From an uncultured delta proteobacterium (lineage in GTDB: Bacteria; Desulfobacterota; Desulfobacteria; Desulfobacterales; Desulfosarcinaceae), in NCBI GenBank assembly GCA_963697225.1, contig CAVONM010000013.1:42375-106374 (forward strand): a stretch of 64,000 nt of DNA. The letters run 5' to 3'. A model generated the notes under the pieces. That model was not told the origin of the DNA and searched no databases. It saw nothing but the letters and a program-made list of their open reading frames with translations. Of this stretch, positions 7,444 through 44,093 are shown in pieces (position 1 is the stretch's first letter; every line of letters begins with the position of its first letter). A program made the position numbers and the translations under genes.

Positions 7444-8043
7444 ATGATAAAGATAGCCGCTGTTTTCGGCAGCCCCCGGCGCAAGGGCAACACGTCAACC
7501 CTTCTTCACCATGCCATCGCCGGCGCTCGTGATGCGGGTGCCCAAGTCACGGAAATCGTGTTGCGGGATTTGGACATGTCGCCCTGCCTGGAATTCTACG
7601 GCTGCAAAAAGGACGGGCGGTGTGTGATCAAGGACGACTATGGGGACATAGAGGAACTGTTTCAGCACATCGATGGCCTGATGCTTGCCTCACCGATTTT
7701 CTTTTACACGGTCAGTGCCCATACCAAGATCCTGATGGATCGCTGCAATTCCCTGTGGGTCAAGAAATACTGGATCGACAAGCAGCCTTTTGGCCGTAAA
7801 AACTACCCTCGCAAGGGCCTGTTCATCTCCGTCGGGTCGACCAAGGGTAAGAAACTGTTCGACGGTGCGCTGCTCAGCGTCAAATATTTCATGGATGCTT
7901 TGGATATGGAGCTCTGGAAAACCCTGCTTTTCAGGGGAATTGAAACGGAGGGGCAGATTTTTCAGCATCCATCGGCCCTGAAGGATGCCTCTGATGCCGG
8001 TAAAGCGCTGGTAGGGACATTGTCGGAACGCCGAGCATCATAA
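7444..8043 (+). CDS. NADPH-dependent FMN reductase / flavodoxin-like fold protein
   Basis: MIKIAAVFGSPRRKGNTSTLL...IDGLMLASPIFFYTVSAHTKILMDR is typical of FMN_red / iron-sulfur flavoprotein family members. Confidence 0.75.
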   Translation: MIKIAAVFGSPRRKGNTSTLLHHAIAGARDAGAQVTEIVLRDLDMSPCLEFYGCKKDGRCVIKDDYGDIEELFQHIDGLMLASPIFFYTVSAHTKILMDRCNSLWVKKYWIDKQPFGRKNYPRKGLFISVGSTKGKKLFDGALLSVKYFMDALDMELWKTLLFRGIETEGQIFQHPSALKDASDAGKALVGTLSERRAS

Positions 8044-8159
8044 GTCGTTTTCATTCAGAATCGGCATCTTTCCTCCCAGGCGGCGTTCTCGCTCAATGAC
8101 AATCCTCAACTTAGTGCGGCTACGTCGGCAGCTTCAACCTCGCTGCGACCTTGACACCT

Positions 8160-11100
8160 TCAGCTTTCAGTTTGCTTGGCTATCGGCGGAAACGTCGTGG
8201 CCCGGGCGAAGGCCATGGCGAAATCAGGTTCGGAGGCCAGTTCCAGATAGCGGATGCGGCGGCTCAGGGCGCGGGCTTCCGATCTCAATTTTTTATCCAA
8301 GAGGGCCATTACGATCCCCACGCCTGCCAGATTTTCTCTGGGGATAACTTCTCCTTCGGCAACGACCGGCGGAAGCATGCCGATGGCCAGGGCGTTTTTC
8401 CAGTTGAAGCGGGCCCCGAAGGCACCGGTGAGGATGGTTCGGTCGATTTTTTCGATGCCTGCCTTGCGCATGAGAAATTCGATGCCCGTGATAAGCGCCC
8501 CCTTGGCCAGTTGAATCTGGCGGACGTCTTTCAAGGTGACTGCAATATCGCTGCCGGTGGTGGTTTGATCGCTGCTTGCGATGGTGTAGTGGCGTCCGAT
8601 GCCCGCTTGGTCGGAAACCACCCCGTCGATGGTCTCATCCAGCCGGCCGTTGGGCAGGATGGCCCCGATGTGGCGCAGGGCGGCGATGGCGTCTATGATG
8701 CCTGAGCCGCAAATGCCCATGGGCCTGTTTTGTCCGTCATTTCCCAGTACTTCGTAGTCAATGCGGCGGCTGCCTTTATCCGGCCATGCACGATGGATGG
8801 CGCCGGAGACCGCACGCATGCCGCAGGAGATCTGGGCCCCTTCCAGTGCCGGACCGGTGGCGCAGCTGGTGACCCACAATCCTTCCCGGTTGCCCAGCAC
8901 CACCTCGCCGTTGGTGCCGATATCCACAATGAGGGTGATCTCGTCGCGTTCGTGGGGTCGGTCGGCCAGAATGGCGGCCATGGTGTCTCCACCCACAAAA
9001 CCCGACACGACCGGCATGAAAAATACCGAAACGGCCGGATCGGTGACCAGCCCCAGATCTCCGGCGCTGAATGGCGGCGGGTTCAGTGTCAGGGGCAGAT
9101 AGGGGAAAACCCCCAGCCCATAGGGATGAAGCCCGGCAAAAACCTGCTGCATGGTGGTGTTGCCGCAGATGCCCACCTCATCGATGTCGCCGACTGTGGC
9201 GCCAACCTGTTCCAGGCAGCGGGTCATGAGAAAATTGATCGCTTCGGTGGCCAGATGTTGGAGTTGATCCAGGTGCGCATCCTTTTCGTTGATTCGGCTG
9301 ATGCGGCTGATCACGTCCTCGCCGAAGCGCCGTTGGGGATTGACACAGGCATCGGCGGCCAGCAGTGCGCCGGTCTCCAGATTGCACAGATAGCCTGCCA
9401 CCGACGTGGTGCCCAGGTCAACGGCGAACCCGAGGCCGGGGGTTTGCCTGCCTGCCAAAATACGGTGTAGGCCGGTCTCTTCGTGCACCACCAGGGTGAA
9501 GGCTTTCAGGCTGTCGCGATATTTGGCCAGCTGCCGCAAGGATGCAATATCGGCAGCCGAGGCGGCCGGTTCGCCGACCTGCGCAGCCAGCCAGTCCAGC
9601 AGGCTTTCCGGGACGTGGTCTGTTTTCAGGCCCGGCGAGCGGTCTTCAACGGCCAGGCGCCGGGTCATGGCATCCACTGGATAGCTGCCAGCGATGCCGG
9701 TTTTGCCTCTTGCTTCGGAATTTCCAGCCAAGGTGTCGGGGATGGTGACCGTTCCTTTGCCGATGGCCCGGGCCTGGCAGGCCAGCCGGGATCCATCGGC
9801 CATTTGATCAGGTGTGAGCACATCCAGTTCCGCCTGGGTGGCTGAAGAGAAATTCGCCTTGGGATGGACGATAACGCGGCACTTGCCGCAGACCCCCATG
9901 CCGCCGCAGTCGGCACGGATGTCGATGCTATGCGCGGCACCCAGTTCCTGGAGGGTTTGCTCTTCCTCTATGGCTACCTTGAGACCGGCCGGTTCGAAGG
10001 TGACCTGGCGGATGTGGCTGAAATTTACGGTGCCAGCGGTGCTCATATCCGACCGATGTTTCTTTTCCCGGCTGCCGTCTGCCTCGACGGTGGTGTCTGC
10101 CCCCCCGGTGAGCAAAAAACTATCGCTGCCATAGGTTTTCACCCGATCCGCTGCCGTAAACCAGCCGCTGCTGCGTACCTGCAGTTCCCGGGAAAGAAAG
10201 GCTGATCGTACATCTAACCGACCACCGGCCACACGCCACTGGATGCAGCGGTAAGGCGTGAAGCCCGCTTCGCTTTTCGATCGGCTGCGGGTGGCGATAC
10301 CGCCGGTTTCGGTGGACCCGTAGACCTCCACCAGATCCACGCCCGTTGCCTTGGAAAATGCCGCGCCGTCGGCTTCGGCCAGTGGGCCGGCCGAGGAAAA
10401 AGCCAGCCGCAGGGCGCCTTTTCCCGGCGGGTTTTCTCTGAGCGCCTGGTAGTGGACCGGCACGCCCACGAAAATGGTGGGTGACGTGTCGGTCATTTGA
10501 CGTTTGATCGCTTCGGGAAAGGAGGGGGTCTGTGCCACCACCCGGGCAGATGCCACCAGGGGTACCAGCAGGGAATAGAGCAGCCCGTAAATCTGCAGGG
10601 CCGGCACGCTGGCCAGAATGCGGTCGCCGCTGCTGATCTCGTAACACTTTATCAGATAGTCCACTTCGCCCAGCAGATTGCGCGGCGTCTTGGACCACAG
10701 GCGCGGGGCGCCGGTGGATCCGCCGGTGAGTAGAACCACCCAGGGCCGGTCAGCATTGGGCGCTTCGTCAGGCGCCAGGGCCTCCGCTTCGTCGTCCAGT
10801 TGCTGGGGTTCGATGACCGTAATCGTTGTCGGCAAGGGTGCTGGGGGACGTGTGATGATTCGGGTGAAGCCGGTCCGGCGATGAAGTTCGGAAACTGTGT
10901 TTGCTGAGAAGTCATCAGGAATCAGCAAGCTCGGACCGTCGACGAGTGTCGCCAGTATGGCCGCGGCCAATACCGAGCGATCATCCGTACCCATGCATAC
11001 CGGGGCCTTGTCTTCGCCGTCGCTGGTCAGCACCGCCCGAATCCGTCTGGCCATCCGGTAGATCCCATCGTAATTGATGCCGGGCATGGTAAATGCCTGA

Positions 11101-11177
11101 CCGGGTCGTTCCGGTCCCGACAATAGCCGTTGCATTCGCATCACCACCGGATCGGTCTTTTTCTTTGCCTCGGTCAT
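8160..11177 (-). CDS. Fusion protein: N-terminal adenylate-forming (AMP-binding) domain + plant-type [2Fe-2S] ferredoxin domain + C-terminal ASKHA ATPase of the RACo/DUF4445 type
   Basis: AMP-binding motifs LLTGGSTGAPRLWSKT and VYGSTETGG are present. The ferredoxin Cys motif is CGGMGVCGKCRV...LACQA. The ASKHA phosphate loops are FAVDLGTTSVAGYL...NPQRRFGEDVISRI and IVDIGTNGEVVLG. Confidence 0.8.
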   Translation of the reverse strand: MTEAKKKTDPVVMRMQRLLSGPERPGQAFTMPGINYDGIYRMARRIRAVLTSDGEDKAPVCMGTDDRSVLAAAILATLVDGPSLLIPDDFSANTVSELHRRTGFTRIITRPPAPLPTTITVIEPQQLDDEAEALAPDEAPNADRPWVVLLTGGSTGAPRLWSKTPRNLLGEVDYLIKCYEISSGDRILASVPALQIYGLLYSLLVPLVASARVVAQTPSFPEAIKRQMTDTSPTIFVGVPVHYQALRENPPGKGALRLAFSSAGPLAEADGAAFSKATGVDLVEVYGSTETGGIATRSRSKSEAGFTPYRCIQWRVAGGRLDVRSAFLSRELQVRSSGWFTAADRVKTYGSDSFLLTGGADTTVEADGSREKKHRSDMSTAGTVNFSHIRQVTFEPAGLKVAIEEEQTLQELGAAHSIDIRADCGGMGVCGKCRVIVHPKANFSSATQAELDVLTPDQMADGSRLACQARAIGKGTVTIPDTLAGNSEARGKTGIAGSYPVDAMTRRLAVEDRSPGLKTDHVPESLLDWLAAQVGEPAASAADIASLRQLAKYRDSLKAFTLVVHEETGLHRILAGRQTPGLGFAVDLGTTSVAGYLCNLETGALLAADACVNPQRRFGEDVISRISRINEKDAHLDQLQHLATEAINFLMTRCLEQVGATVGDIDEVGICGNTTMQQVFAGLHPYGLGVFPYLPLTLNPPPFSAGDLGLVTDPAVSVFFMPVVSGFVGGDTMAAILADRPHERDEITLIVDIGTNGEVVLGNREGLWVTSCATGPALEGAQISCGMRAVSGAIHRAWPDKGSRRIDYEVLGNDGQNRPMGICGSGIIDAIAALRHIGAILPNGRLDETIDGVVSDQAGIGRHYTIASSDQTTTGSDIAVTLKDVRQIQLAKGALITGIEFLMRKAGIEKIDRTILTGAFGARFNWKNALAIGMLPPVVAEGEVIPRENLAGVGIVMALLDKKLRSEARALSRRIRYLELASEPDFAMAFARATTFPPIAKQTES

Positions 11178-11490
11178 TGAATGAGAAGTCCCTTCAAATG
11201 GTTACTGTTATATCAGGCTATCGATGGGGTCAAGGTGATTAACCGGCTGTCCACTTGACACCGTCCGATTATTTCACTACCTAACGGGTTCTCGCCTGCA
11301 CCTTTGTCGAGATGTGATCGACTTGTAATTACCTGTGGAGGTCCATGGATGTACGGTTGTACCCGCCCGCTGACCAATCTTGAACCCAGCTGCATCGCAC
11401 AAAAAACCTTTTGCCCGATCACCGGCAGTGTCCCGGCATCGGCGCCTGTGGGCTGGCGTAGATGCCGGACTGCACCCGAACGGTCTGCCC

Positions 11491-12384
11491 ATGACCGATA
11501 GGCCAGATTCGCGATTGCCAGAAAAACCACCGGTCGTCTTGGGCCTGCTGGGCGGCCTCGCCGTCTTTGTTTCAGCCTTTTGTTTTTACTTCTCCACAGT
11601 CGTGATTCGTTGGTCCCGTGAGGGGGTGGCCATCGATTCCGCCTATTTCGCTTTTTTCCGATTCTTGCTGGGATTTGCAGTGGTCTGTGTGATCATGGGT
11701 GTGCGCCGGCAGAAACCGGCCCCCAGGCGCTATCATCTTCTCATCGGCCGCACACTGGGAAACTGCATTGCCGTGTATTGTTTTTACCAGGCGGTGCGCT
11801 ACACCTCGGTGGTCGAGGCCAATATTTTGAACATGACCTATCCCATCTTCGTGGCCATCCTGTCCTGGATCCTGCTGCGCCGCCAGCGGGATGCGGTTGC
11901 CGTGGCCATGGTGGTGGTGGCCATTGCCGGGGTCTGGCTGATTCTTCAGCCCGGCCGCATGGGCATGGGTGTCCACAGTCTCTGGGGATTGAGTTCGGGG
12001 ATCAGTGCGGCCGTTTCCATTTTCTATTTAAATCTCAGCCGGCAGCACCACGATGCCAACACCGTCCTGTTTTACATGTTCGGCCTGGGATCGGTGTTGA
12101 TGTTTCTCTTCTTCCGGGAGCATTTCTTCTGGCCGAATGGCCGTGAGCTATATTATCTGACGCTGTGCGGCGGGGCTGGCATTGCCGGCCAGTTTCTGAT
12201 CACCCTTGGGTTTCGCTATGTCACGGCCGTGGAGGGCGGCGTCATCTCCTCGACACGGATATTGCTGGCCGGCATACTGGGGCCGTGGTTGGTGGCGGAT
12301 CCTTCTTTGGGAACGGCTGGATGGATGGGTGCCTTGCTGATCTTCGGGGCCAACGTGGTGCTTGCTGTTCGCAAAGGCCGCTGA
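11491..12384 (+). CDS. EamA/DMT-family transporter (10 TM)
   Basis: Two EamA-like hydrophobic halves. Transcribed divergently from the fusion gene. Start chosen at MTDRPD. Confidence 0.7.
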   Translation: MTDRPDSRLPEKPPVVLGLLGGLAVFVSAFCFYFSTVVIRWSREGVAIDSAYFAFFRFLLGFAVVCVIMGVRRQKPAPRRYHLLIGRTLGNCIAVYCFYQAVRYTSVVEANILNMTYPIFVAILSWILLRRQRDAVAVAMVVVAIAGVWLILQPGRMGMGVHSLWGLSSGISAAVSIFYLNLSRQHHDANTVLFYMFGLGSVLMFLFFREHFFWPNGRELYYLTLCGGAGIAGQFLITLGFRYVTAVEGGVISSTRILLAGILGPWLVADPSLGTAGWMGALLIFGANVVLAVRKGR

Positions 12385-12455
12385 CGCGACCGGCTTTCCT
12401 ACCGGTGCATCACCGGCGGATACCAATGATCCCCCAAACGGAAAACACAGCCGAT

Positions 12456-15400
12456 TTACCTGGGCCTGGCCACGTGCCAAATCATATCCGTCCGGTTTCC
12501 GGAGGTCAGGCAGGTGAGTATTTCGAATCCGCATTTGTCGAGGGTGGTGCGGATTGCCGTTTGGCTGCGGCAGCAAGCCTGACGTCCGCCTATTCTGAGC
12601 GCCAAATGCACTAGCTGCCGGCGCCAGTGGGGTCTGTTCGACCGGGGCAGCAGCGATCGCATGATCAGACGACCACCGGGAAGCAGGCGCTCATGGATGC
12701 GTTCCAGGGTTTTTTCCAACTCCCAGTCCTGCAGGAAGTGACCTACGTCGATCATGGTCGCCAGATTCAGCAGCACATCCATTGCCGGCAAATCGGGTGC
12801 GGATCCCCTGACGATGCGCCCCTGTTCGCCCAACACCAGGGCAGCCACCCGCACCCGCTCGGGCTGCGGATCGATGCCGTGGATGGTGGCGTGGGGATAA
12901 TGCTCGGCCAGCCAGCAGGCCGACACGCCGTACCCGCAGCCCACATCCAGGATGTTGGCCAGGTCGGTTTTTTTCGGCACCAGTGCCGCCAGCTCACTCA
13001 AGAGCGGGTCCACCCGTTGCGAGTAGTGGGCAAACAGGCGCGGGCAGGGCGCCATGTTGCGGTAGCGCCAGGCGACGCCTTCGGCGGCTGGGGGTGGATT
13101 TTCGAACCGTCGTTTCAACAAAGGGGGCAGGATCAGCAGCGTGCCGACAAGGCAATAGCCGATGCCGAAAAAGGAGATCTGTCCGGCGCTTTTCAACAGA
13201 TCATGATCGGCGCCCCAGATTGCGGCAGCACCCACCAGGGTGCAACCGGCGGCCATGACCAGTGCCGTTCGAACCACCGAGAAACAGGGATTGTCGAACC
13301 GCTGGTAGCGCTGGTATCCCCGGACCATGAGCAGGGGACTGCATACGCCCACGCCCAGTATGATTACCGACAGCAGCATCAGTGCGGTGAGGTTTAGTGG
13401 GTGGCCCAACATGCCCATGGTGCCCAACGTACAAATATAGGCGAAGGCCGGGGGCAGCAGGGCAATGAGCAGCAGGCCCATATCGGCCATATAGAAGGCC
13501 AGCAGAAAGGTCAGGACTGCCCCGATGAGCAGCAGCATCGCGATAAGTCCATCGTACAGCCGTTTTTCCATGCGTTGGGAGAGGTGTGCCGGATCGAATA
13601 TAGCCGATATGTCGGATATCCGGTCGTAAAATCGCTGGTTGTCAAAGTGCACACGGGGGGTGATGCGGGTTACCTGGCGCCATTGACCGTCGTTTCCGTC
13701 CCTATGGATACCCAGCAGCGTCTGTACGCTCGGCGGGATGGTGGTCGGGTGGGGGGATGCGGCGGTGATCATGGTCAAAAACGGGTCAAATACACCCTCG
13801 GCAAACCCCTGGGCCGCGCCTTCCCGATTCACCGCCGCGCTGACCATGCGGACGCGTTCCGCGGTCCAGAATTGGTTCCAGGCGTCGAAATTGTCTGCGC
13901 TGCGGCTGCGTCCGGGCCAAAACAGGGATGGTGTCAATGCCTTTTCGATGCTGCCGGCGTGGGTTTCGGTTTCGAGTCGCTCCAGCAACCGGTCGTTTTT
14001 GGCCTGAAGGGCGGCCAGGTCGTTTGCCTCGGTCACCAGATAGACGCTGGAAAAAATGTCACCCCACACACGGGTGATCAATTCCTCCGCCGCACGCGTT
14101 TCCCGGCTGACGCCGCTCATGGCTTTCGGGTCCGTGGCAATGTGGGGCCGGATGAAAAGGGACAGCCCCACCGCAGTCAACAGGGCCAACGCCAGTCCCG
14201 GCCAGCCGGCTGAAAAGAGACGGCCCAGCAGCCGTGGAAAACGGCGTTCGGCAGGCACCGCACGGTGCTGGTCGTCCGTCAGGATCCGGGGGAAGACGGT
14301 GTGGACGAACAGGCAGGAAAAGCCGATCCCCATTGCAGTAACCCACCCTATTTGTTCGAAAACGGCAACGCCGCGGGCGGCCATGGCGCCGAAGACACCG
14401 ATGGTGGTGAGCACGGCCGGCAGCCCGATGGCCCGGATTTCACGGGAGGCCTGCCTTGTCCGTTTTTTACCGCCATTGTCGACAAAGAGCATGTAGGCGA
14501 TGCCGTGGTGTATGGTGATCGAAACCATTACACTCCCGAAGCCCAGTACCATGATGGAAATGCTGTCGTGACTCAATGAAAAGACGAAAACGGCCATGAC
14601 TGTCCCGACCAGTGCCGGCAACAGGGCCAACAGTCCCGCCAGAGGATTGGAAAAGGCGGCCAGCAGCAGTACACCGATGCCCACCGCGGTCCACCGGATG
14701 GCCCGATGCACGTCCCGTTTAACGATGGTTTCGTTGTCCAGGGTGGAACGAAAGGTTCCTGCGGTGGTCAGGGTGATCCCACTGCCGATATTTTGTTTCA
14801 GGCCCTCATCCAGTTCGTGGAAGAATCCTGTCAGGGCGCGCGCCACGGTCGTGTCCGTGCCGTGACCGATCGGGGTGGCCAGGATCAGCAGGTGGCGGTG
14901 GTCGGCGGAGAGAAAACGGCCGCGGTGAATGGTCGTCCCGGGTGTTGGATTCATGGCGGCCAGTCGGGAGAGGATGCTCTGGCGCAGACCCAGCGGGTCG
15001 GTGGCCAATGCCGATGCTGGACTGATGCCGGCCATCCGGTTGTGGTCAGCCCCGCTCCTGGTCAGGGCTTGATGAATTGCCTCGTCGGTCAACAACGGGG
15101 CGACCTGCTGCGCCAACTCCCCCGCGGTAAACAATACAGGCAGATGATGGCAGACCAGATCCGCCAGATCGACAAGTCCCTGCTGCATAGACGGATGTTG
15201 CCTCTGCGCGAACAGGTCGCTTTGCTTCATCCGGTTTTCGACCATTTCTGCGGCGGCGACCAGTCGTGACATATCCCCCTTGATGGATTCGATGTCGATG
15301 GCGATTTGATTGGTTTTTATGATGCCCAGTCCGTCGGCAATCTCAGGGTTGTCCGTGAACAGCGGGCCTGGCATGTCATTATCGATGGTGATGCGGTTGA

Positions 15401-15479
15401 ATGCGACCAGGAAAAGGGTCGCACCGATGAGGGTGACCGCTGCCAGCGCAAACATGTTGATGGACGAATTCAGTCGCAT
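12456..15479 (-). CDS. MMPL/RND-like 'predicted exporter' (COG4258-type, two 6-TM bundles) fused to a C-terminal class I SAM-dependent methyltransferase domain
   Basis: About 800 aa of membrane protein with two transmembrane clusters separated by periplasmic-like domains. The C-terminal ILDVGCGYGVSACWLAEHYPHATIHGIDPQPERV...LPGGRLIM is SAM-MTase motif I plus post-I. Confidence 0.75.
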   Translation of the reverse strand: MRLNSSINMFALAAVTLIGATLFLVAFNRITIDNDMPGPLFTDNPEIADGLGIIKTNQIAIDIESIKGDMSRLVAAAEMVENRMKQSDLFAQRQHPSMQQGLVDLADLVCHHLPVLFTAGELAQQVAPLLTDEAIHQALTRSGADHNRMAGISPASALATDPLGLRQSILSRLAAMNPTPGTTIHRGRFLSADHRHLLILATPIGHGTDTTVARALTGFFHELDEGLKQNIGSGITLTTAGTFRSTLDNETIVKRDVHRAIRWTAVGIGVLLLAAFSNPLAGLLALLPALVGTVMAVFVFSLSHDSISIMVLGFGSVMVSITIHHGIAYMLFVDNGGKKRTRQASREIRAIGLPAVLTTIGVFGAMAARGVAVFEQIGWVTAMGIGFSCLFVHTVFPRILTDDQHRAVPAERRFPRLLGRLFSAGWPGLALALLTAVGLSLFIRPHIATDPKAMSGVSRETRAAEELITRVWGDIFSSVYLVTEANDLAALQAKNDRLLERLETETHAGSIEKALTPSLFWPGRSRSADNFDAWNQFWTAERVRMVSAAVNREGAAQGFAEGVFDPFLTMITAASPHPTTIPPSVQTLLGIHRDGNDGQWRQVTRITPRVHFDNQRFYDRISDISAIFDPAHLSQRMEKRLYDGLIAMLLLIGAVLTFLLAFYMADMGLLLIALLPPAFAYICTLGTMGMLGHPLNLTALMLLSVIILGVGVCSPLLMVRGYQRYQRFDNPCFSVVRTALVMAAGCTLVGAAAIWGADHDLLKSAGQISFFGIGYCLVGTLLILPPLLKRRFENPPPAAEGVAWRYRNMAPCPRLFAHYSQRVDPLLSELAALVPKKTDLANILDVGCGYGVSACWLAEHYPHATIHGIDPQPERVRVAALVLGEQGRIVRGSAPDLPAMDVLLNLATMIDVGHFLQDWELEKTLERIHERLLPGGRLIMRSLLPRSNRPHWRRQLVHLALRIGGRQACCRSQTAIRTTLDKCGFEILTCLTSGNRTDMIWHVARPR

Positions 15480-15632: not shown

Positions 15633-16226
15633 TTATTTCTGAACGCCCCATCGTTCGCGGATGTTGCGATGGTGGCAGGCCACGATGAACAAGGCGGTCA
15701 CCACGGCGCCGACGCCGGCCCGCCAATCGGTTCCCATAGCGATCGTCGTTCCGGCGGCCAGCGTAACCACCATGGCAAAAGATGACAGAAACGGCGTTCG
15801 CCAGACCAGGTGTGCCGCCCCCCAAGCCAGGGTGCCGACACCGGCCCACATCGGTGCGATCACCAGGGTGAAACCCAGGTAGTTGGCCACCCCCTTGCCT
15901 CCCTTGAGGCCGTGAAAGCAGGGAAAGCGATTACCCAGGATCAGCCCGAGGCCCGCCCATGGCACCTGCCAGAAGGGCAACAGTGATCGGGCCACCAGGG
16001 CCACAGCGACCGCCCGACCCACGTCCAGCAGCAGGACTGCCAAGGCCCAGCCGATGCCTGCCTGCCGAAAGACATTAGTGGCACCGGGGTTGCCGCTGCC
16101 GTGACGACGCGGGTCACCGCGACCGGTGAATCGAAATGCCAGGATGGAAAAATTTACCGATCCGGCCAAATAGGCAGCGGCAATCATGAAGATGAATGTC
16201 GGCAGATGTGTGGCGGGCATGATCAT
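15633..16226 (-). CDS. plsY: Glycerol-3-phosphate acyltransferase PlsY (acyl-phosphate dependent)
   Basis: SGNPGATN signature, FPCFHGLKGGKGVA, 197-aa polytopic protein. Confidence 0.85.
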   Translation of the reverse strand: MIMPATHLPTFIFMIAAAYLAGSVNFSILAFRFTGRGDPRRHGSGNPGATNVFRQAGIGWALAVLLLDVGRAVAVALVARSLLPFWQVPWAGLGLILGNRFPCFHGLKGGKGVANYLGFTLVIAPMWAGVGTLAWGAAHLVWRTPFLSSFAMVVTLAAGTTIAMGTDWRAGVGAVVTALFIVACHHRNIRERWGVQK

Positions 16227-16592
16227 TGTTAAGCCATCAACAGAAAAAGGTTAACCTGCATGATGTTTCGGATCGAAGTGGCCATCTGATCACAGCCAAT
16301 CCCAACGCGGGGGAGTGTATTTTCACCATCCACGGTTCAATTCGGGTTGGGTTCAGTTTCGCTTCGGGCCTTTTCGTGTCGATACGATATCGGCAGCTGC
16401 TGATACGCGGATTTCGGCTGAAGAGCAATAGTCTTGAAAGGGCATGATTGTCAATCCTCGCCGTGATCGCTGACGGCAACCAATGACCCCTCCGGCAACA
16501 GGCGGTCGACCGGCCAATCTGCTACAAATCCTTGACAATTGATTGCCGAACGGGTCTATTGGACATCTATTTATTGCTTTTATTCCAACACG

Positions 16593-17390
16593 ATGGGAGG
16601 AGCGATGGGGCTTAAAGAGCACGAATACATCAGGCAGACACTGGAGCGCTACACCAACTGCAAACTGGAGGATTTTTGCAGCCACGTGCTGATCACCAAT
16701 TTTCGTCAGTACATCAAAGCCTTTTCCGAGCAAACCGGGTGCGACATTCATGAGGGCAATTTCCGGATCGTCAATGCACCGGCGTTGGACTGCACAATGA
16801 TCGATTTCGGCATCGGCTCGCCTCAGGCGGCCCTGGTAATCAACGGCCTGGCCTACCTGGACAATCTGAAGTCGGTGGTCATGCTCGGGATGTGCGGCGG
16901 TATCGACGACATCCTGGAAGTGGGCGACTTCGTGGTGCCGACGGCCGCGATTCGGGGGGAGGGAACCAGCCGCCATTACCTGCCCATGGAATTCCCGGCC
17001 CTGCCGGCCATGTCCGTGAACCTGTTGTGCATCGGTGCCGTCAAGGCGCGCAAGATCGTTCCCCGCTGCGGTATCGTCTACACCACTGACCGCCGATTGT
17101 GGGAATTCGATGACGCTTTCGTGGACCACCTGCGTTGTCAGCGAATCCTGGCGATCGAGATGGAACTGGCCACGCTCTTCTCCGTGGCTTACCGCTATGA
17201 AGTGCCCATCGGTTCGATCATGCTGGTTTCAGACATGCCCTTGCAGCGGCGCGGCATCAAAGACAAGAAACTGCACGAGGAAATATACAAGAATCACATG
17301 AACATCCACCTGGATATTGCAATGGATGCCGTTTCCAATCTCAAGGCCCGATGGCCGGATGTGGAGCGGCAGTTGCACAGCGAGTGGTAA
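16593..17390 (+). CDS. Nucleoside phosphorylase-family protein (PNP_UDP_1 fold; AMP nucleosidase / MTA nucleosidase-like)
   Basis: VVMLGMCGGIDD...ILAIEMELATLFSVA motifs of phosphorylase family 1. Confidence 0.65.
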   Translation: MGGAMGLKEHEYIRQTLERYTNCKLEDFCSHVLITNFRQYIKAFSEQTGCDIHEGNFRIVNAPALDCTMIDFGIGSPQAALVINGLAYLDNLKSVVMLGMCGGIDDILEVGDFVVPTAAIRGEGTSRHYLPMEFPALPAMSVNLLCIGAVKARKIVPRCGIVYTTDRRLWEFDDAFVDHLRCQRILAIEMELATLFSVAYRYEVPIGSIMLVSDMPLQRRGIKDKKLHEEIYKNHMNIHLDIAMDAVSNLKARWPDVERQLHSEW

Positions 17391-18520: not shown

Positions 18521-19018
18521 ATGACGGAAAACAGTGCGCTGGATATTCTTAAACATGCAATTCTGCTGGAAAAGCGGGGGAAATCGTTTTATCGGACGGT
18601 GGCAAATCAATCCACGAACAGTGATGTGAAGGCTTTCTTTGAAACCATGGCCACCGAAGAAGTCCAGCACGTCAAAATCCTTTCCGATCAGTTCAAGGCC
18701 TTCAAGGAAACCGGTAAATTCAAACCAGCGGACACCCTGGAAACGGGCTCCATCTCAAAAAATGTTTTGACGCCGGAGGTCAAGGGGCGCATTGCCGCTG
18801 CAGATTTCGAAGCGGCAGCCATTTCGGCGGCCATGCTCATGGAGGAGCGTGCCATCACGCTGTATGCCAAACGAGGCAATGAGGCCCTGGACCCGGAAGA
18901 GAAAAAACTATACCAGTGGCTGGCTGACTGGGAAAAAGAACACCTGGCGTTTCTCGCCGCTATCGACGCGGAGTTGAAGGAGCGAATCTGGAATGACAGC
19001 GGTTTCTGGCCCTTCTAA
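18521..19018 (+). CDS. Ferritin-like / rubrerythrin-like diiron-fold protein (no rubredoxin domain)
   Basis: 165 aa with two E..H-containing helices (TEEVQHVKIL, EKEHLAFLAA). Confidence 0.55.
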   Translation: MTENSALDILKHAILLEKRGKSFYRTVANQSTNSDVKAFFETMATEEVQHVKILSDQFKAFKETGKFKPADTLETGSISKNVLTPEVKGRIAAADFEAAAISAAMLMEERAITLYAKRGNEALDPEEKKLYQWLADWEKEHLAFLAAIDAELKERIWNDSGFWPF

Positions 19019-20154: not shown

Positions 20155-21090
20155 CTACTCAAGTCGAGAGACCAGCTCTGCAGCCGTTGAACAGTTCTCA
20201 CCGCCGGCCGCTTCGATACTCCGTCGATAATTATGGCTGGCTCGTCCGCCGACCACCAGCGGGAATCCATTATTCAGCAAGTCAGACAGGCGGGTGAGTT
20301 CGTCTTGCATGAAGGCATCATCGACGCGACAGGTGATGCTCAGGGCAATCATTTCCGCGCCAGGGATAGAACAGGCAGCGGCGATCTCTTCAGCCGGCAG
20401 ATTAAAACCTAAAAAGACCGGTTCCCAACCGTGATCCTGTGCAGTAACGGCTACGGCCAGAGCGCCCAGGTAACAGCACTGGCCGGCCGGTGCGGCGATC
20501 AGCAAGCATGGCTTTTCAGCGGCATCGCCGGTGGGATGACTCAGCAAGCCAATGAGTTGCGCATGAATGACGACCGAGGCCATCTGTCCATGAACAATCC
20601 GCAATGATCCATCAGACCACCTGCGGCCAACCTGCTCCATGAGCGGACAGAATATCGTGTCAATCAAGGCTTGACGGCTGAAGGCCGCGGCTGCCTGCCG
20701 CAGTATGCCCTGCAGCGCCTTGCCGTCAAGCATGGCAACGGCTTCTAAACTATGGCTGACTATCTCAGTTGGGGCGATGCCGGCGGGCATTTTTGAATCG
20801 TCGTGAGTTGGCTCGTTGGGCTGGATGGCGGGTGGTGTGGTGGGTTCCGCCAGCTCGACCAATTGGGCCCGATCGAGACCGGCAATGTGCGATATGCTGT
20901 GGCCATTCTGGATCACCCGTCTGAGCAGGACGAGGCGGTCGATGTCCGACTGGCTGAACAATCGGCGGCCATTGGCCAACCGCTGCGGCGCAACCGCATG
21001 GTATCGGCGTTCCCATGCCCGGATCACATGGGTGGAAAGACCGGTGTGTAAACTGACAAAGCCAATCGGAAAGGCAACCGGACCGGGCAT
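20155..21090 (-). CDS. MerR-family regulator with a C-terminal cobalamin (B12)-binding domain (CarH/LitR-like)
   Basis: N-terminal MerR HTH (FPIGFVSLHTGLSTHVIRAWERRY). C-terminal B12-binding Rossmann-like domain (LLIAAPAGQCCYLGALAVAVTAQDHGWEPVFLG...). Confidence 0.7.
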   Translation of the reverse strand: MPGPVAFPIGFVSLHTGLSTHVIRAWERRYHAVAPQRLANGRRLFSQSDIDRLVLLRRVIQNGHSISHIAGLDRAQLVELAEPTTPPAIQPNEPTHDDSKMPAGIAPTEIVSHSLEAVAMLDGKALQGILRQAAAAFSRQALIDTIFCPLMEQVGRRWSDGSLRIVHGQMASVVIHAQLIGLLSHPTGDAAEKPCLLIAAPAGQCCYLGALAVAVTAQDHGWEPVFLGFNLPAEEIAAACSIPGAEMIALSITCRVDDAFMQDELTRLSDLLNNGFPLVVGGRASHNYRRSIEAAGGENCSTAAELVSRLE

Positions 21091-21529
21091 CGTATCTACT
21101 CCATTCGAGAAAAATGTGGCCTCGCGCAAACGATCCCATGAATGCTTAGCGCCCCGCCTGTCGTCGATGACCCATCATGCATAGCAAAACACACTTTTCA
21201 TTGTTGACAATTTGCCCGCTACCCCACCAAAAGCAGCAGGGGTAGTTTCTGTAGTGGCGGCTTTTCCGAGTTCATCGACGCTGGCGGGCCCGATTTTATT
21301 CGTCGACAAGTTTGGAAATGGCCAGCGCGCAGGCATTCACGGCTTCATCAGGTCCATCCAAGTTGATGATATGATTTTCAAGATCAAAATCTACAATCGT
21401 GCAGCCATGGTTTTCAACCGTCATCTTGATTACATTCAAAAATGTTGCTTCATCCATAAGAGTCATCCTTCCCATCCGTCATCCTGCGACAAAAAGGATT
21501 GCCGGTGACAGATTTACGTCAATGTTGGG

Positions 21530-30350: not shown

Positions 30351-30839
30351 ATGAAAGCAATTACCGCCACCATCGCACTGATGTTCATCGGCGTTTCGAT
30401 GGCCGCCGCTGCCGGCAGCCCGTCCGTCAAACCGTCGGTTTCGAAAGATGCGCAATACTACAATGCAGGCGTTGACTTGATGCTGGCCAAGAAATTTACC
30501 GATGCGGAAAAGCAGTTCCGCAAAGCCCTTGAACGCAACGAGCGCTTCGCCGAAGCTCACAACAAGCTGGCCTACACCCTGCGAAAACAGGGTCCAGATC
30601 ACTACGCCGAGGCCCTCGAACACTATAACCGGGCGATTGAATTGAAGCCGAACCTGGCTGAACCCTACATGTATCGCGGGGTGCTGCACATTCAGATGGG
30701 CAAACCCTCCCTTTCCCAGGAAGATCACAATAAACTCGTCGCCATGAATTCGCCCCTGGCCGCTGAGCTGCAGTACGTGGTCGAAAACGGCCGCGAAAAA
30801 GAACCGGAACCGTTTTTCGGTGTGTCTCGTAAAATGTGA
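30351..30839 (+). CDS. Secreted TPR-repeat protein
   Basis: Signal peptide MKAITATIALMFIGVSMAAAAG, then TPR-like repeats. Confidence 0.55.
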   Translation: MKAITATIALMFIGVSMAAAAGSPSVKPSVSKDAQYYNAGVDLMLAKKFTDAEKQFRKALERNERFAEAHNKLAYTLRKQGPDHYAEALEHYNRAIELKPNLAEPYMYRGVLHIQMGKPSLSQEDHNKLVAMNSPLAAELQYVVENGREKEPEPFFGVSRKM

Positions 30840-30889
30840 TCTGGAAGATCAAGTGGGCCCAGACCGGGATTGACAAAATTGAGATTTGG

Positions 30890-30918
30890 ATGACAAGCGG
30901 TCGCGTATGTCGTATTAT
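30890..30918 (+). promoter_or_regulatory. Sigma70-like promoter candidate ATGACA-N17-TATTAT upstream of the hemerythrin/encapsulin operon
   Basis: Hexamers and spacing read from the sequence. About 110 nt upstream of the ATG at 31030. Confidence 0.3.
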
Positions 30919-31029
30919 ATCCCATAATCGCCTGATGTGCAGACGGGCCTTGTATGGCCTGTGAGAATGGTGGAAACCCCCGCCCATCGTCCCCACCACC
31001 AGACACCCAAATTTTCTAAAGGAGAACAT

Positions 31030-31545
31030 ATGGACATCATCGATGCATTGGTCGGTCACCACCAGGAACTCAGAAAACTCTACCAGGCGTCGGAAAGCGA
31101 TGCGGGCCGGTTCGCCGAATTTGTGCGTCACCTCGTGGTTCACCACACCATGGAGGAGAAGTACTTTTACGATTTGCTCCAGAAGGTCGCCGATGCCCGC
31201 CACGATTCCCTTGAAGCGGTCAACGAGCACCATATCATTGAATTGATCATCAAGGATGCCGAAGGATTTCCTAAAGATCACGAAGGCTTTCCCATCAAGG
31301 TGGAAGGCCTTGGCGAATACACCTCCCACCACCTGGACGAGGAGGAGGCGGAAATCTTTCCCATGGCGCGCGCCCGTTTCAGCCCCGAGGACCTGATGAT
31401 CCTGGGAAAGCTATTCCTCGAGGCCAAACAAAAAATGCTTGCCATTGAATTACCGGAGGTGCCTGCGCAGATCAATCAACGGGCTGCTGGCTCGAAACAG
31501 GTTCAGGCCAGCTCGCAAGGGCTTGGCATCGGCAGCTTGAAATAA
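31030..31545 (+). CDS. Hemerythrin-like (HHE cation-binding) protein with a C-terminal encapsulin targeting peptide: predicted encapsulin cargo
   Basis: Multiple H..E/HH pairs (VGHHQELR, LVVHHTMEEKY, EHHIIELI, SHHLDEEEAE). The C-terminus ...SSQGLGIGSLK matches the family-1 encapsulin cargo-loading peptide consensus (SLGIGSLK/R-like). Lies 46 nt upstream of the shell gene. Confidence 0.8.
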   Translation: MDIIDALVGHHQELRKLYQASESDAGRFAEFVRHLVVHHTMEEKYFYDLLQKVADARHDSLEAVNEHHIIELIIKDAEGFPKDHEGFPIKVEGLGEYTSHHLDEEEAEIFPMARARFSPEDLMILGKLFLEAKQKMLAIELPEVPAQINQRAAGSKQVQASSQGLGIGSLK

Positions 31546-31591: not shown

Positions 31592-32410
31592 ATGGATATA
31601 CTGAAAAGAGAGCTGGCACCGATTCCGCAGCAGGCTTGGGCTGAAATCGATGCGCAAGCGGCAAGAAGCCTGAAAGCGATCCTGTCGGCCAGAAAAGTCA
31701 TTGACCTGACAGGGCCCATGGGACCGGATTTTCCAGGAGTGCCCGAGGGACGCCTGGAATATCCGGGCAACCAGTCGCCAACCGGGCTGTCCTATGGCAT
31801 TCACAAGGTTCATCACCTGGTGGAGACCCGTATTCCCTTCGAACTGGACATCAAGGAGATGGACAATGCCGTCCGTGGGGCCAAAGACCTCGATTTGGCC
31901 AATCTGGAAGCCGCCGCACTGGAGATCGCCCTGTTTGAAGAGAGTGCGGTTTACCACGGACTGCCCCAGGCCAACATCAAAGGGCTCAAACATTGTGCTG
32001 ATCAGGAATGCCTGACCATCGGATCGACGCCGGAACAATTGCTCGAGGCTATCGCCGAGGGGCTGACTGTCTTCGCCGGCCGCTCCGTCGAAGGACCCTT
32101 CTCCTTTGTCGTGGGGCCTAAACTGTGGAGCCGGATGTCCGCACACCTGCAGGGCTACCCGGTTAAAATGCAGGCTGAGAATATCCTGGGCGGAACGGTG
32201 CTGCTTAGCCCCTATCTAACCGGCGATTTCGAGATGGAAGCATACATGGTCTCCCAGCGGGGCGGTGATTTCGAGATCATTTTGGGCAACGATCTGGCGA
32301 TCGGCTATGACAGCCATACGACCAGCACCGTCGGGCTTTACTTCACGGAATCCTTTACCTTTAGAATCCTCGATGCCGCCGGCGTCATTCATTTTACGGC
32401 TCAGGTGTAG
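31592..32410 (+). CDS. Family 1 encapsulin nanocompartment shell protein (Linocin M18 / HK97-fold)
   Basis: MDILKRELAPIPQQAWAEID... and C-terminal ...QRGGDFEIILGNDLAIGYDSH...FTESFTFRILD align closely with the Thermotoga maritima encapsulin that I recall ([20 protein letters not shown]...[22 protein letters not shown]...ITETFTFQVV). Confidence 0.9.
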   Translation: MDILKRELAPIPQQAWAEIDAQAARSLKAILSARKVIDLTGPMGPDFPGVPEGRLEYPGNQSPTGLSYGIHKVHHLVETRIPFELDIKEMDNAVRGAKDLDLANLEAAALEIALFEESAVYHGLPQANIKGLKHCADQECLTIGSTPEQLLEAIAEGLTVFAGRSVEGPFSFVVGPKLWSRMSAHLQGYPVKMQAENILGGTVLLSPYLTGDFEMEAYMVSQRGGDFEIILGNDLAIGYDSHTTSTVGLYFTESFTFRILDAAGVIHFTAQV

Positions 32411-32492: not shown

Positions 32493-32738
32493 ATGGTCGA
32501 CAAAGCGGCACTGTGTGAAAAAATAAAATCGATATACCCGGACATCGGCGAATGTGGCATCGACATCAAAGTGGATTATGACGATGAAAAGCGGACTACC
32601 ATTTTATACCTGCGCAGGGGCAACAAGGAAGTCAAGCACTACCTGCCGGATGAAGACGCGGAGGCATGTATGGCGGGGCGGCAGTGCGTCGCCCTGGGTG
32701 TGGAGATCGCCCAGCTCAGGGATGAGCGCTACCTCTGA
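32493..32738 (+). CDS. Small Cys-containing hypothetical protein (81 aa) immediately downstream of the encapsulin gene
   Basis: Strong AAAGGAGG RBS. Four Cys. No domain recognised. Confidence 0.35.
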   Translation: MVDKAALCEKIKSIYPDIGECGIDIKVDYDDEKRTTILYLRRGNKEVKHYLPDEDAEACMAGRQCVALGVEIAQLRDERYL

Positions 32739-33184
32739 TGGCAACCTGAACTTTAGCGGCACCCACCCAAAACCATTTTCGAATCGGAAAACTGCGGATA
32801 TAGCCGGCGTCGGCCAGTTGCGGCAGCAGGGTTCCGGCCTGGCGCAGGGAAAGCAGCAGGCCGACATAAACGGACGGGGCACAGATGGCGCCCAAGAGCC
32901 AGAGAAGCACCAACGTGGCGCTGGCCACCTGTTCAGCCAATCTGGAGGCAGCGCCGTTGAGCAAGTTCATCACGTACTTCTCAGGCGGTGCGCTGCATTC
33001 CGAATCGGGAATGGCTGAGCATGCCCTGTCGTAGCGGTCATCGCCGCTCAATTTCCCATAGACCCGCTCGACGTGGCTGGGCTTGGATGCCATGTCTTGT
33101 TCTCACTCGCTCCTTGCGTTAATCTTTGGCTTTGAAACTGGCCGAACCGCATGAAAAATGGACAATGCCCACTCTCGGGGCCAG

Positions 33185-41984: not shown

Positions 41985-42012
41985 ACGGACCTCCCAGCTC
42001 ACATGTGGAGCA

Positions 42013-42800: not shown

Positions 42801-43351
42801 TTACCGGTCGTGGGACCGGGTTGATGCTGGGTGTGTCATTGACAAGAATGCTTGGTGACGAGAACCAACATAGTATAAACACCGGTAAACGACCAATAAT
42901 TCTCCTCAGGACGTTGATTAAGACCTGCGCGTTGCCTGTTGAGGTTAATTCTCGATAGGCCACCATTCGTATTCTTTTCGAGCTGGTAGTATTTCGCCAT
43001 CATTTTAACCGAAATCAGTCATCATTGCGGATTCATCCTAACTAGTTAAATTGTTAAATATATGAATAATTTTATTCATCCCAATCTTAAGGCACAAGCC
43101 TGCATTTGATTCTGAACGAAGATGAGAATCAACTGACAATTTCAAGTCGCTTTCTGAAATGTTGAGGATATTTAGAATGATTGTATTTTTCATAATCTAC
43201 ACAGTTTTTTTCATAATCGCGTCTGCCGCTGGTTGGAGTGTCGCATCGTCAATGTGACTCTCCGGATCTACTGAAGCATCCGCATCTTGTTTTTAGAGGC
43301 GATGCTTGTTGTTTGGCCCAGCATTTTTAAAAGTACTTTCAGGTCATATTT

Positions 43352-43651: not shown

Positions 43652-43718
43652 TATCTCACCTTTTCGTGCATGATCCTGATTGTGGGTTATCGGCACACGC
43701 TGGAAGGTAAAAAATAGG

Positions 43719-44084: not shown

Positions 44085-44093
44085 TCCATTCAG

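Follow-up and report, generated by a model that had tools for sequence, protein, structure and literature searches.

A Desulfosarcina fusion protein that probably serves as a RACo-type corrinoid activator and carries a fossil adenylating domain

The fusion gene described here lies in a 64 kb stretch of DNA from an uncultured member of the Desulfosarcinaceae (the window, meaning the whole stretch analysed; Table 1) and probably encodes a functional RACo-type activator with a fossil ANL (AMP-binding) domain, the corrinoid client of which would be encoded elsewhere in the genome. The C-terminal ~615 aa appear to constitute an intact reductive activator of this type within a Desulfosarcina-specific fusion, and the N-terminal ~360 aa are the N-subdomain of an ANL enzyme that probably came from a ladderane-like or aryl-polyene-like FASII lipid gene cluster. 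A first-pass annotation of the same DNA had described the gene as a three-part fusion of an adenylating domain, a 2Fe-2S ferredoxin and a RACo/ASKHA ATPase; Pfam recovers all three parts, but the ANL part consists of an N-subdomain and a ~30-aa remnant and is not a whole adenylating domain. The reading frame begins with ATG and contains no internal stops.

Table 1. Features of the fusion gene and its surroundings, in window coordinates.
Feature	Coordinates	Strand	Residues	Basis or remark
Whole fusion ORF	8160..11177	-	1005 aa	ANL N-subdomain, remnant, 2Fe-2S ferredoxin, linker, RACo middle, ASKHA ATPase
RACo C-terminal ASKHA ATPase domain	8184..8942	-	746-998	Pfam RACo_C_ter, dN/dS
RACo middle region	8958..9434	-	582-740	Pfam Raco_middle
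Linker, Fer2 to RACo middle	9435..9737	-	481-581	Aligned to linker part of 3ZYY; folded in AlphaFold model
Plant-type [2Fe-2S] ferredoxin domain	9738..10007	-	391-480	Pfam Fer2, RACo N-domain alignment
Vestige of ANL C-terminal subdomain	10008..10103	-	359-390	Alignments, dN/dS, pLDDT
ANL (AMP-binding) N-terminal subdomain	10104..11150	-	10-358	Pfam, AlphaFold model, Foldseek, dN/dS
Divergent intergenic region, fusion gene to EamA gene	11178..11490	.		Radical SAM/SPASM gene absent; locus comparison
EamA-family transporter gene	11491..12384	+		Divergent from fusion gene
MMPL-type exporter fused to SAM methyltransferase	12456..15479	-	1007 aa	Pfam; exporter of lipid cluster
PlsY (glycerol-3-phosphate acyltransferase)	15633..16226	-		Also adjoins orthologous radical SAM/SPASM gene in Desulfatitalea

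Pfam matches to the fusion protein, taken at E<=0.1, comprise AMP-binding (aa 82-298, E 2.6e-22), Fer2 (aa 396-471, E 3.5e-9), Raco_middle (aa 582-740, E 6e-46) and RACo_C_ter (aa 746-998, E 3.5e-72), with none to BadF/BadG/BcrA/BcrD/HgdC-type or sugar kinase families. The crystal structure of RACo (3ZYY, E 6.8e-80) can be aligned with residues 391-997 from end to end, and the AlphaFold model finds its best structural match in RACo (chains 3ZYY_Y and 4C1N, Foldseek TM 0.82-0.84). The C-terminal module is therefore of the RACo type, as assigned earlier, and not a BadF/BcrAD protein or sugar kinase. RACo of Carboxydothermus hydrogenoformans, the reductive activator of CoFeSP and a relative of the activating enzymes of O-demethylase and other corrinoid methyltransferase systems (COG3894/DUF4445), has the same order of [2Fe-2S] ferredoxin, linker, middle domain and ASKHA ATPase and is 30-31% identical to the fusion over ~510-630 residues. 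Unlike RACo, the fusion has an additional ~390-aa ANL-derived region at its N-terminus, and no corrinoid protein gene adjoins it.

A search of other genomes for the same domain architecture located this fusion in 22 assemblies, all of them from Desulfosarcina; the three from D. alkanivorans PL12, D. widdelii PP31 and D. variabilis Montpellier are complete genomes. Because the fusion recurs in this way, the junction between the ANL and Fer2 parts near nt 10000 is genuine, and an assembly artefact, a concern raised at the outset, is excluded. The architecture is seen in more than 60 protein clusters. Intact relatives are ~1070 aa long and contain a complete ANL enzyme; alignment shows that class B relatives have lost parts of the ANL region and kept RACo, and that class C relatives have kept the ANL region and lost Fer2 together with ~110 aa of the ASKHA domain. 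That each half loses parts independently across relatives argues that neither depends on the other for catalysis.

The cofactor and ATP motifs of the RACo half are all intact. The ferredoxin ligands Cys424, Cys430, Cys433 and Cys467 fall within CGGMGVCGKC...LACQ, and the motif CGGxGxCGKC...LAC[QR] is kept in nearly all aligned class A and class B relatives. The ATPase motif quoted in the first-pass annotation, DLGTTSVAGYL...NPQRRFGEDVISRI, is indeed present (aa 587-626) and opens with the ASKHA phosphate-1 motif DLGTTS (aa 587-592); this motif, phosphate-2 (DIGTNGE, aa 752-758) and the adenosine motif (LTGAFGA, aa 916-922) are essentially invariant in classes A and B; class C has degenerate forms of them. 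The cobalt-facing loop, SCATGPALEG (aa 771-780), is identical across all class A and B fusions and identical or nearly so in the closest stand-alone relatives (43-54% identity), two of five having one Leu-to-Phe exchange. Among these relatives, P0073 is a member of a classical corrinoid methyltransferase operon that also encodes a TRAP transporter, two URO-D methyltransferases, a B12-binding protein and a pterin-binding methyltransferase. In the RACo complex, the hydroxyl side chain of Ser398 ligates Co(II) (PMC4934906); the equivalent residue of the fusion is Ala773, with Thr774 adjacent, and the same loop occurs in the stand-alone relatives, including P0073. The RACo half shows a dN/dS of 0.12-0.18 in comparisons of five independent genomes from the clade to which the window belongs, indicating strong purifying selection.

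By homology to RACo, the [2Fe-2S] domain would take up an electron, the middle and ASKHA domains would dock on a corrinoid protein trapped as inactive Co(II), and ATP binding and hydrolysis would power the uphill electron transfer that yields Co(I). Counting against an activator are the Ala773 found at the position of the Co(II)-ligating Ser398 and the match to the AcsV model (NCBIfam NF040756; CoFeSP activation/regeneration protein), which scores 343.7 bits where the cut-off is 800 and is limited to aa 578-997. So does the gene neighbourhood, where, as had been noted before, a corrinoid methyl-transfer system is missing: the window ORFs scanned include no gene for CoFeSP, for a URO-D/MtaA-type or pterin-binding methyltransferase, or for a small corrinoid protein. 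The B12-related genes of the window are two encoding MerR regulators with B12-binding domains, 9 and 29 kb from the fusion gene. A second RACo-like protein, a paralog of ~520 aa that is encoded separately and widely conserved, also occurs in Desulfosarcina, so the fusion is not the sole candidate activator of the genus, which likewise counts against this role.

The ANL half is only partly preserved. Its N-subdomain retains the A3 P-loop TGGSTGAPRLWSKT (aa 151-164), A5 (YGSTETGG, aa 286-293) and A7 (SGWFTAADRV, aa 337-346), is modelled with pLDDT above 90, and is matched by Foldseek to MatB, benzoate-CoA ligase and the PqsA N-domain. Adenylation requires the A10 lysine, which is supplied by the ANL C-terminal subdomain of ~100 aa. 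Relative to intact homologues, ~70 aa of this subdomain have been deleted, leaving the ~30-aa remnant; the A8 hinge motif GRxDxxxKxxG is broken, reading GGADTTVEADGSR where intact relatives have GRxDxIVKVGGNR; and the A10 site reads TAGTVN (STAGTVN) in place of TGKIDR, with loss of the lysine. The remnant has a pLDDT of 31-41, and is thus predicted to be disordered, and drifts neutrally in the window's clade (dN/dS 0.5-1.2), as against 0.11-0.22 for the intact subdomain of relatives (0.76 in one low-divergence pair). To judge from these sequence features, the window copy has probably lost its capacity for adenylation along with the C-terminal subdomain. The N-subdomain is still under purifying selection, with a dN/dS of 0.28-0.46 in the window's clade compared with 0.14-0.42 in intact relatives; with P-loop and A5 intact, it is no dead appendage and may retain some function, which speaks against a protein that is an activator only.

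The probable source of the ANL half can be traced through its relatives. In the sister genus Desulfatitalea, the orthologous ANL protein is encoded by a stand-alone gene (474 aa) that lies beside PlsY and is divergent from an orthologous radical SAM/SPASM gene. The copy from Desulfatitalea alkaliphila (L038, 8371-9795) is 45% identical end to end to intact fusions and 40% identical to the window protein, and shares with the fusions the P-loop variant TGGSTGxP.[LM]W[ST]KT. The window protein differs from this enzyme, and from ApeH-like ANLs fused to ApeI/FabA dehydratases, in that it has no C-terminal subdomain, is joined to Fer2-RACo and is missing the partner radical SAM gene. The other nearest ANL relatives sit in clusters with ACP, KS, ApeI, ApeP, LolA and B12-radical SAM genes, and the ladderane-like FASII lipid cluster of Desulfatitalea includes B12-radical SAM enzymes. 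We know of no report of a RACo module in ladderane-type or aryl-polyene (Ape) clusters. Ladderane-type FASII clusters have been described in Kuenenia stuttgartiensis and Desulfotalea psychrophila (Rattray et al., 2009, PMC2649909), and the clusters related to the present fusion resemble them in having several radical SAM genes, including a B12-binding one, divergent FabF paralogues, a phytoene-desaturase-like oxidase, a polysaccharide-deacetylase-like gene and a SAM methyltransferase, and additionally hold LolA, ApeI/ApeP-like dehydratases and an MMPL-like exporter.

Class A loci comprise a contiguous cluster of 4HBT, PS-DH, PlsY, exporter and deacetylase genes that ends in the fusion gene, with EamA and radical SAM genes divergent from it. 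Where relatives have retained an intact ANL half, the site between the fusion and EamA genes holds a radical SAM/SPASM gene, co-directional with the EamA gene and 10 bp from it. The radical SAM/SPASM gene is present at 10 of 11 loci with an intact ANL half and absent at 9 of 10 with a truncated one, counts that come from ±10 kb of context and reflect only ~2-4 independent evolutionary events on a crude NJ tree. The window's lineage is missing both the radical SAM/SPASM and the polysaccharide-deacetylase genes, and no KS, ACP, dehydratase or B12-radical SAM gene lies within the 64 kb window. The neighbours are lipid-related, as first described, and PlsY, the exporter-methyltransferase gene and EamA are all that is left of the lipid cluster there. 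The exporter is 24% identical over 718 aa (E 1e-32) to that of the L036 cluster, and its gene has a dN/dS of 0.44-0.56 in the window's lineage versus 0.13-0.22 in lineages with an intact fusion, which signifies relaxed selection. The lipid module would thus have been dismantled in this lineage through loss of partner genes, relaxation of the exporter, and loss of the ANL C-subdomain with its A10 lysine, and purifying selection would have kept the ANL N-subdomain as an appendage with a structural or ligand-binding role. With the ANL half crippled and the lipid module dismantled, the present role of the protein is therefore most likely that of an ATP-dependent corrinoid activator only. The sequence data establish the domain layout, the state of the motifs, the distribution, the synteny and the selection pattern; the activity, the client and the loss of adenylation are deduced from them.

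Two of the alternative readings give the ANL half a continuing part. The first-pass annotation proposed that both halves act on one acyl or aryl substrate, coupling adenylation to ATP-dependent electron delivery, or that they form a carboxylic-acid-reductase-like system. The covalent joining of the modules and the genus-wide retention of the fusion speak for such cooperation, as do the intact P-loop and A5 motif and the ability of isolated ANL N-domains to hold acyl-AMP, exemplified by the PqsA N-domain (5OE3-5OE6), which is among the fold matches. Coupling to substrate adenylation is nevertheless not supported, at least for this copy, given the deleted C-subdomain, the absent A10 lysine and the broken A8 motif, nor is a carboxylic-acid-reductase-like system, given the absence of PP-binding (carrier) and reductase domains from the Pfam matches, the ANL N-subdomain being followed by Fer2-RACo. 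The reciprocal domain loss among relatives also opposes cooperation, as does the lack of relation between the settings in which the closest stand-alone proteins of the ANL and RACo kinds operate, which must be considered very unlikely. A tentative possibility that refines the activator explanation is that the N-subdomain has acquired a new role outside catalysis through which the activator is regulated, for example in docking or as a sensor of nucleotides or acyl ligands. Its dN/dS, hardly above that of intact relatives, is consistent with this proposal, as are its confidently predicted fold and the motifs LLxGPxRPGQxF, DRIL and WR..G..LD, which do not vary even in proteins with a degenerate P-loop. 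The P-loop and the A5 Glu are, however, degenerate in other class B lineages (P0026, P0044, P0052 and P0057), so nucleotide binding is not universally kept, and folding or solubility constraints on the fused protein could equally explain the purifying selection. That the whole gene is a decaying relic without function is improbable in the extreme: the lost partner genes, the partial deletion of the ANL half and the relaxed exporter gene would fit such decay, but the open reading frame, the complete set of cofactor and ATP motifs and the constraint on the RACo half across five genomes would not.

A further reading places the RACo half in the lipid pathway itself, as a dedicated ATP-driven reductant that converts cob(II)alamin to cob(I)alamin for the cluster's cobalamin-dependent radical SAM enzymes; the fusion to the ANL domain would then be a trace of the shared pathway, and the role would belong to the intact ancestors and possibly persist here. 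The type of cluster from which the ANL half derives regularly holds B12-binding radical SAM genes, the class A fusion gene terminates a contiguous lipid cluster, and RACo modules elsewhere are fused to partners from their own pathways. In those fusions, Fer2-RACo carries a C-terminal URO-D methyltransferase or cNMP-binding domain, and they likewise show RACo joining pathway partners or regulatory domains, although their added domain sits at the C-terminus and is part of corrinoid methyl transfer, whereas that of the Desulfosarcina fusion is N-terminal and of lipid-pathway origin. Against this reading, the RACo half is strongly constrained even though the cluster genes are absent from the 64 kb and the exporter is relaxed, and class C keeps the ANL domain and the radical SAM gene while dropping Fer2 and ~110 aa of the ASKHA domain. 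The B12-radical SAM genes were met in Desulfatitalea and metagenomic clusters only and so far at no Desulfosarcina locus, those same clusters lack a stand-alone RACo gene within ±10 kb, and the papers found that pair ATP-dependent reductive activation with corrinoids deal with corrinoid methyltransferases and CoFeSP. A reductant of this kind is accordingly judged unlikely, and an activator with a corrinoid client encoded elsewhere is the preferred explanation.

To our knowledge, RACo-type activators are known solely as aids to corrinoid methyl transfer, serving CoFeSP, O-demethylases and methylamine methyltransferases. Here, such a module is fused, genus-wide, to the adenylating enzyme from a lipid cluster that is uncharacterised and encodes B12-radical SAM enzymes. 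If the link is functional, it bears on how the cobalamin of B12-radical SAM enzymes stays reduced in cells, and a true reductant role would make this the first dedicated reductive activase assigned to such enzymes. Even without a functional link, the family offers a clean natural experiment on the fate of a fused protein, in which lineages have shed one half, adenylating or electron-transferring, and with it the matching neighbour genes. The window gene should not be labelled an acyl-CoA or acyl-AMP ligase, and the pattern of loss tells annotators which copies of the fusion should adenylate.

The fusion protein combines an adenylating half of the ANL type with a Fer2-RACo half, RACo being the reductive activator of corrinoid proteins (see the table below). 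Residues 391–997 cover the whole of the crystallised C. hydrogenoformans RACo (3ZYY) without large gaps (E 6.8e-80), and RACo chains also match the AlphaFold2 model of the window protein, built from an 82-sequence alignment (mean pLDDT 89), with TM values of 0.82–0.84 at 30–31% identity. The N-terminal part of the model matches ANL enzymes, including MatB, benzoate-CoA ligase and N-domain-only PqsA structures. A BadF/BcrAD or sugar-kinase identity for the ATPase is ruled out, since no such family appeared among the matches and RACo fits instead. The three-domain architecture and the RACo-like C-terminal module noticed in the first-pass annotation are thus correct. An exact-sequence look-up returned no identical record for the window protein.

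Features of the fusion gene and of other genes in the window (nucleotide positions unless marked aa)
Feature	Position	Strand	Details
Fusion ORF	8160–11177	minus	intact, 1005 aa
AMP-binding	aa 82–298		Pfam E 2.6e-22; first of four domains
Fer2	aa 396–471		Pfam E 3.5e-9; second domain
Raco_middle	aa 582–740		Pfam E 6e-46; third domain
RACo_C_ter	aa 746–998		Pfam E 3.5e-72; fourth domain
Exporter-methyltransferase gene	12456–15479		
AMP nucleosidase-like gene	16539–17390	plus	short (~260–280 aa); NCBIfam PRK07115, 270 bits (cut-off 264)
Rubrerythrin-like gene	18521–19018	plus	
First MerR+B12-binding regulator	20155–21129	minus	syntenic copy in related genomes (L001, L014, L015)
ORF flanking encapsulin gene	30496–31332	minus	no Pfam match
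Encapsulin shell gene	31592–32410	plus	Linocin_M18, E 3e-70
ORF flanking encapsulin gene	32554–33018	plus	no Pfam match
Dak2 + FakA-middle + DegV protein	35553–37394	minus	613 aa
Second MerR+B12-binding regulator	40610–41569	plus	
Low-G+C patch	42000–46000		G+C 0.49–0.50 vs 0.52–0.65 elsewhere
Fragment matching photolyase-related protein (DPRP)	42013–42615	minus	200 aa
ORF in low-G+C patch	43268–43774		no Pfam match
ORF in low-G+C patch	44094–44807		no Pfam match
ORF in low-G+C patch	44957–45529		no Pfam match
ThuA-like domain + GFO/IDH/MocA oxidoreductase	52866–54668	plus	600 aa
FemAB-like GNAT acyltransferase, GT4 glycosyltransferase, PIG-L family de-N-acetylase and myo-inositol-1-phosphate synthase genes	55665–60254	plus	in a run

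More than 60 protein clusters found by protein search share the ANL-Fer2-RACo architecture, and a scan of one genome per species located the fusion at 22 loci, all in Desulfosarcina; D. alkanivorans PL12, D. widdelii PP31 and D. variabilis Montpellier are represented by complete genomes. A mis-assembly at the ANL/Fer2 junction near nt 10000, which the first-pass annotation had raised as a possibility for positions 9900–10000, is excluded by conservation of the junction in 22 assemblies, complete genomes among them. In an exhaustive HMMER profile scan of 1.84 billion representatives, the ANL-RACo architecture occurred among the best 150 matches only in Desulfosarcina-type clusters (P0039, P0062 and P0074). 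The remaining best matches were Fer2-RACo proteins of the ordinary kind, in some cases extended by a C-terminal URO-D or cNMP-binding domain. Other RACo fusions in public data (clusters P0398, P0427 and P0496) likewise join Fer2-RACo to a C-terminal URO-D methyltransferase or cyclic-nucleotide-binding domain. A literature search for DUF4445 with AMP-binding found nothing, and no description of an ANL-RACo fusion was found in the literature on RACo/ASKHA proteins and ATP-dependent reductive activation of corrinoids.

Three classes emerge from an alignment of 77 sequences. Class A (~1070 aa, some 30 clusters) retains every motif: the ANL P-loop TGGSTGxPRLWSKT, YGSTETGG, the A8 hinge GRxDxIVKVGGNR and a 102-aa ANL C-terminal subdomain carrying A10 (TGKIDR), followed by the Fer2 cysteines and the ASKHA motifs DLGTTS, DIGTNGE and LTGAFGA, so that both halves look functional. 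Class B (~930–1005 aa) has lost the ANL C-terminal subdomain through several different deletion forms, often with degeneration of the P-loop and the A5 glutamate as well, and its Fer2 and ASKHA motifs are nearly unchanged. Among complete genomes, AP021874 has the truncated ANL half, and AP021875 and CP159846 have it intact; the D. widdelii protein DSCW_27980 is one such intact relative. Class C (~855 aa) has a complete ANL half, lacks Fer2, and carries a ~110-aa deletion within the ASKHA domain together with a degenerate phosphate-2 motif. This reciprocal pattern of loss argues that the ANL and RACo halves can work without each other.

Efficient adenylation by ANL enzymes requires the C-terminal subdomain and its A10 lysine. 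The window protein belongs to class B; it preserves the P-loop, A5 and A7 and has GGADTTVEADGSR at A8, ~70 aa are missing from the ANL half, and the A10 lysine is replaced (STAGTVN). The most economical reading of these motifs is that its ANL N-subdomain would no longer adenylate efficiently. With A8 altered, the ~70 aa missing and the A10 lysine replaced, the earlier proposal that adenylation is coupled to reductive activation is not supported for this copy, and neither is a carboxylic-acid-reductase-like system.

Selection differs among the domains in pairwise NG86 estimates made at modest divergence (dS about 0.1–0.4). Within the window's clade (the window protein and four orthologues, 86–89% identity), dN/dS is 0.12–0.18 for the RACo part (0.14–0.20 in class A), 0.13–0.42 for Fer2 (0.03–0.91) and 0.28–0.46 for the ANL N-subdomain (0.14–0.42). 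The 33-aa remnant of the ANL C-subdomain reaches 0.52–1.19, whereas the intact 102-aa subdomain of class A gives 0.11–0.22 (one low-divergence pair, 0.76). Because the remnant is also the sole internal segment predicted to be disordered in the AlphaFold2 model (aa 361–388, pLDDT 31–41), it is best regarded as a drifting linker. The RACo half, judged by its low ratios, is strongly constrained, and the ANL N-subdomain of the window's clade is still constrained. The truncated RACo part of class C, at 0.17–0.46, is not neutral either, and "decay" in this family therefore denotes the loss of parts and motifs, not pseudogenisation.

Genomic context was compared over ±10 kb around the relatives and over 64 kb for the window. 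Class A loci carry, in this order, genes for 4HBT, PS-DH, PlsY, an MMPL-methyltransferase exporter and a polysaccharide deacetylase, then EamA and radical SAM/SPASM genes that share a strand and diverge from the fusion gene. Where enough upstream sequence was available, the radical SAM/SPASM gene was present in 10 of 11 class A loci and absent from 9 of 10 class B loci, all nine of which also lack the deacetylase; one of two class C loci has it, and it is absent from the other. The neighbourhood thus follows the condition of the ANL half. This correlation is no more than suggestive, because few events underlie it: in an NJ tree, class B seems to have arisen independently at least twice, and so does class C. 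The whole 64-kb window holds no homologue of the radical SAM/SPASM enzyme, deacetylase, KS, ACP, dehydratase, LolA or B12-radical SAM enzyme. Its exporter-methyltransferase gene is homologous to the cluster exporter and shows dN/dS of 0.44–0.56 in the window lineage versus 0.13–0.22 in class A lineages; a sister genome lacks the gene altogether. The window lineage is losing the lipid module and maintaining the RACo half. A promoter and terminator scan of 7900–12600 gave background level only.

Many relatives (L002, L004, L005, L006, L007 and several of L017–L034) have a gene for RidA, a 127-aa Rid family deaminase, convergent to and directly downstream of the fusion gene; the gap is only 3 bp in L005, where the neighbourhood is otherwise unrelated, and the gene is absent from the window. 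The AMP nucleosidase-like gene adjoins PlsY in most related loci. Elsewhere in the window, the 613-aa polypeptide looks like a fusion of the fatty-acid kinase subunits FakA and FakB, the ORFs flanking the encapsulin gene could encode cargo, and the gene set at 55665–60254 recalls mycothiol-type or inositol-glycolipid biosynthesis, unexpected in Desulfobacterota. The second MerR+B12-binding (CarH-like) regulator lies ~450 bp from the photolyase-related fragment, and the presence of two such regulators in one window of a sulfate reducer may reflect a light- or B12-responsive module. The low-G+C patch may be recently acquired DNA.

A likely home of the ANL half is seen in Desulfatitalea alkaliphila, which has a stand-alone 474-aa ortholog that aligns end to end with class A fusions at 45% identity and is 40% identical to the window protein. 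This gene is divergent from a radical SAM/SPASM ortholog (65% identity to the gene divergent from class A fusions); after it come PlsY, a PS-DH dehydratase, a 4HBT thioesterase, two KS and two radical SAM genes, with an ACP, an ApeI/FabA-like dehydratase and a B12-radical SAM gene further in the cluster. Further close relatives of the ANL half occur as fusions with ApeI/FabA dehydratases or within similar ACP/KS/KR/LolA/B12-binding clusters. Some homologues of the radical SAM/SPASM gene form a fusion with an ApeP-like dehydratase in the same type of cluster, and a tetrapyrrole-modifying AhbD/NirJ identity was rejected, given these fusions and matches that fell far under the cut-offs and lay mostly in the generic SPASM region. 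Clusters of this kind are reminiscent of the unusual FASII clusters of Kuenenia stuttgartiensis and Desulfotalea psychrophila, which hold radical SAM and B12-radical SAM enzymes, FabF paralogues and phytoene-desaturase-like, polysaccharide-deacetylase-like and SAM methyltransferase genes (PMC2649909).

The closest stand-alone relatives of the RACo half (43–54% identity) include P0073, encoded in a classical corrinoid methyl-transfer operon with a TRAP transporter, GntR, two URO-D-type methyltransferases, a B12-binding corrinoid protein, a URO-D-B12 fusion and a pterin-binding methyltransferase. The Co(II)-ligating residue of RACo is Ser398 (PMC4934906). The equivalent loop reads SCATGPALEG in all class A and B fusions, is the same but for one Leu-to-Phe change in the closest stand-alone relatives, and is destroyed in class C; the Ser398 position is Ala773 in the window protein, with Thr774 next.

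Most economically, then, the window protein would be a working RACo-type activator carrying the ANL N-subdomain as the remnant of an adenylating enzyme. An electron would enter through the [2Fe-2S] cluster, and ATP-driven transfer would hand it to a Co(II) corrinoid protein, a client encoded outside the window. The two MerR+B12-binding regulators are the only B12-related genes within it, and nothing beyond loose synteny speaks for them as clients. The nearest relatives of the RACo half favour corrinoid methyltransferase systems as putative clients, and the CoFeSP of the Wood-Ljungdahl pathway is another candidate. The client cannot be inferred by elimination, because Desulfosarcina encodes another RACo-like paralog, ~520 aa long, that is conserved widely. 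This second family (L005, 20635–22191; P0121–P0240) comprises the linker, middle and ASKHA domains of RACo but no Fer2, shows 60–75% identity across Desulfosarcina and other Desulfobacterales, and is matched by thousands of proteins at E<=1e-20; in L005 its gene is not beside corrinoid genes.

The home cluster of the ANL fusion partner suggests B12-radical SAM enzymes as further candidate clients, the presence of their genes in the Desulfosarcina version of the cluster being an extrapolation from Desulfatitalea and metagenomic contigs. This candidate is weakened on two counts: the RACo half is still there where the cluster has been lost, and class C retains the pairing of ANL with radical SAM although its RACo half is incomplete. 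A role for the RACo half in the ATP-driven reduction of the neighbouring radical SAM/SPASM enzyme is unlikely, as class B keeps RACo without that gene and class C has the gene but neither Fer2 nor a complete ASKHA domain. No link between RACo and B12-radical SAM enzymes was found in the literature searched on ATP-dependent reductive activation of corrinoids, and such a client, if true, would be new biology.
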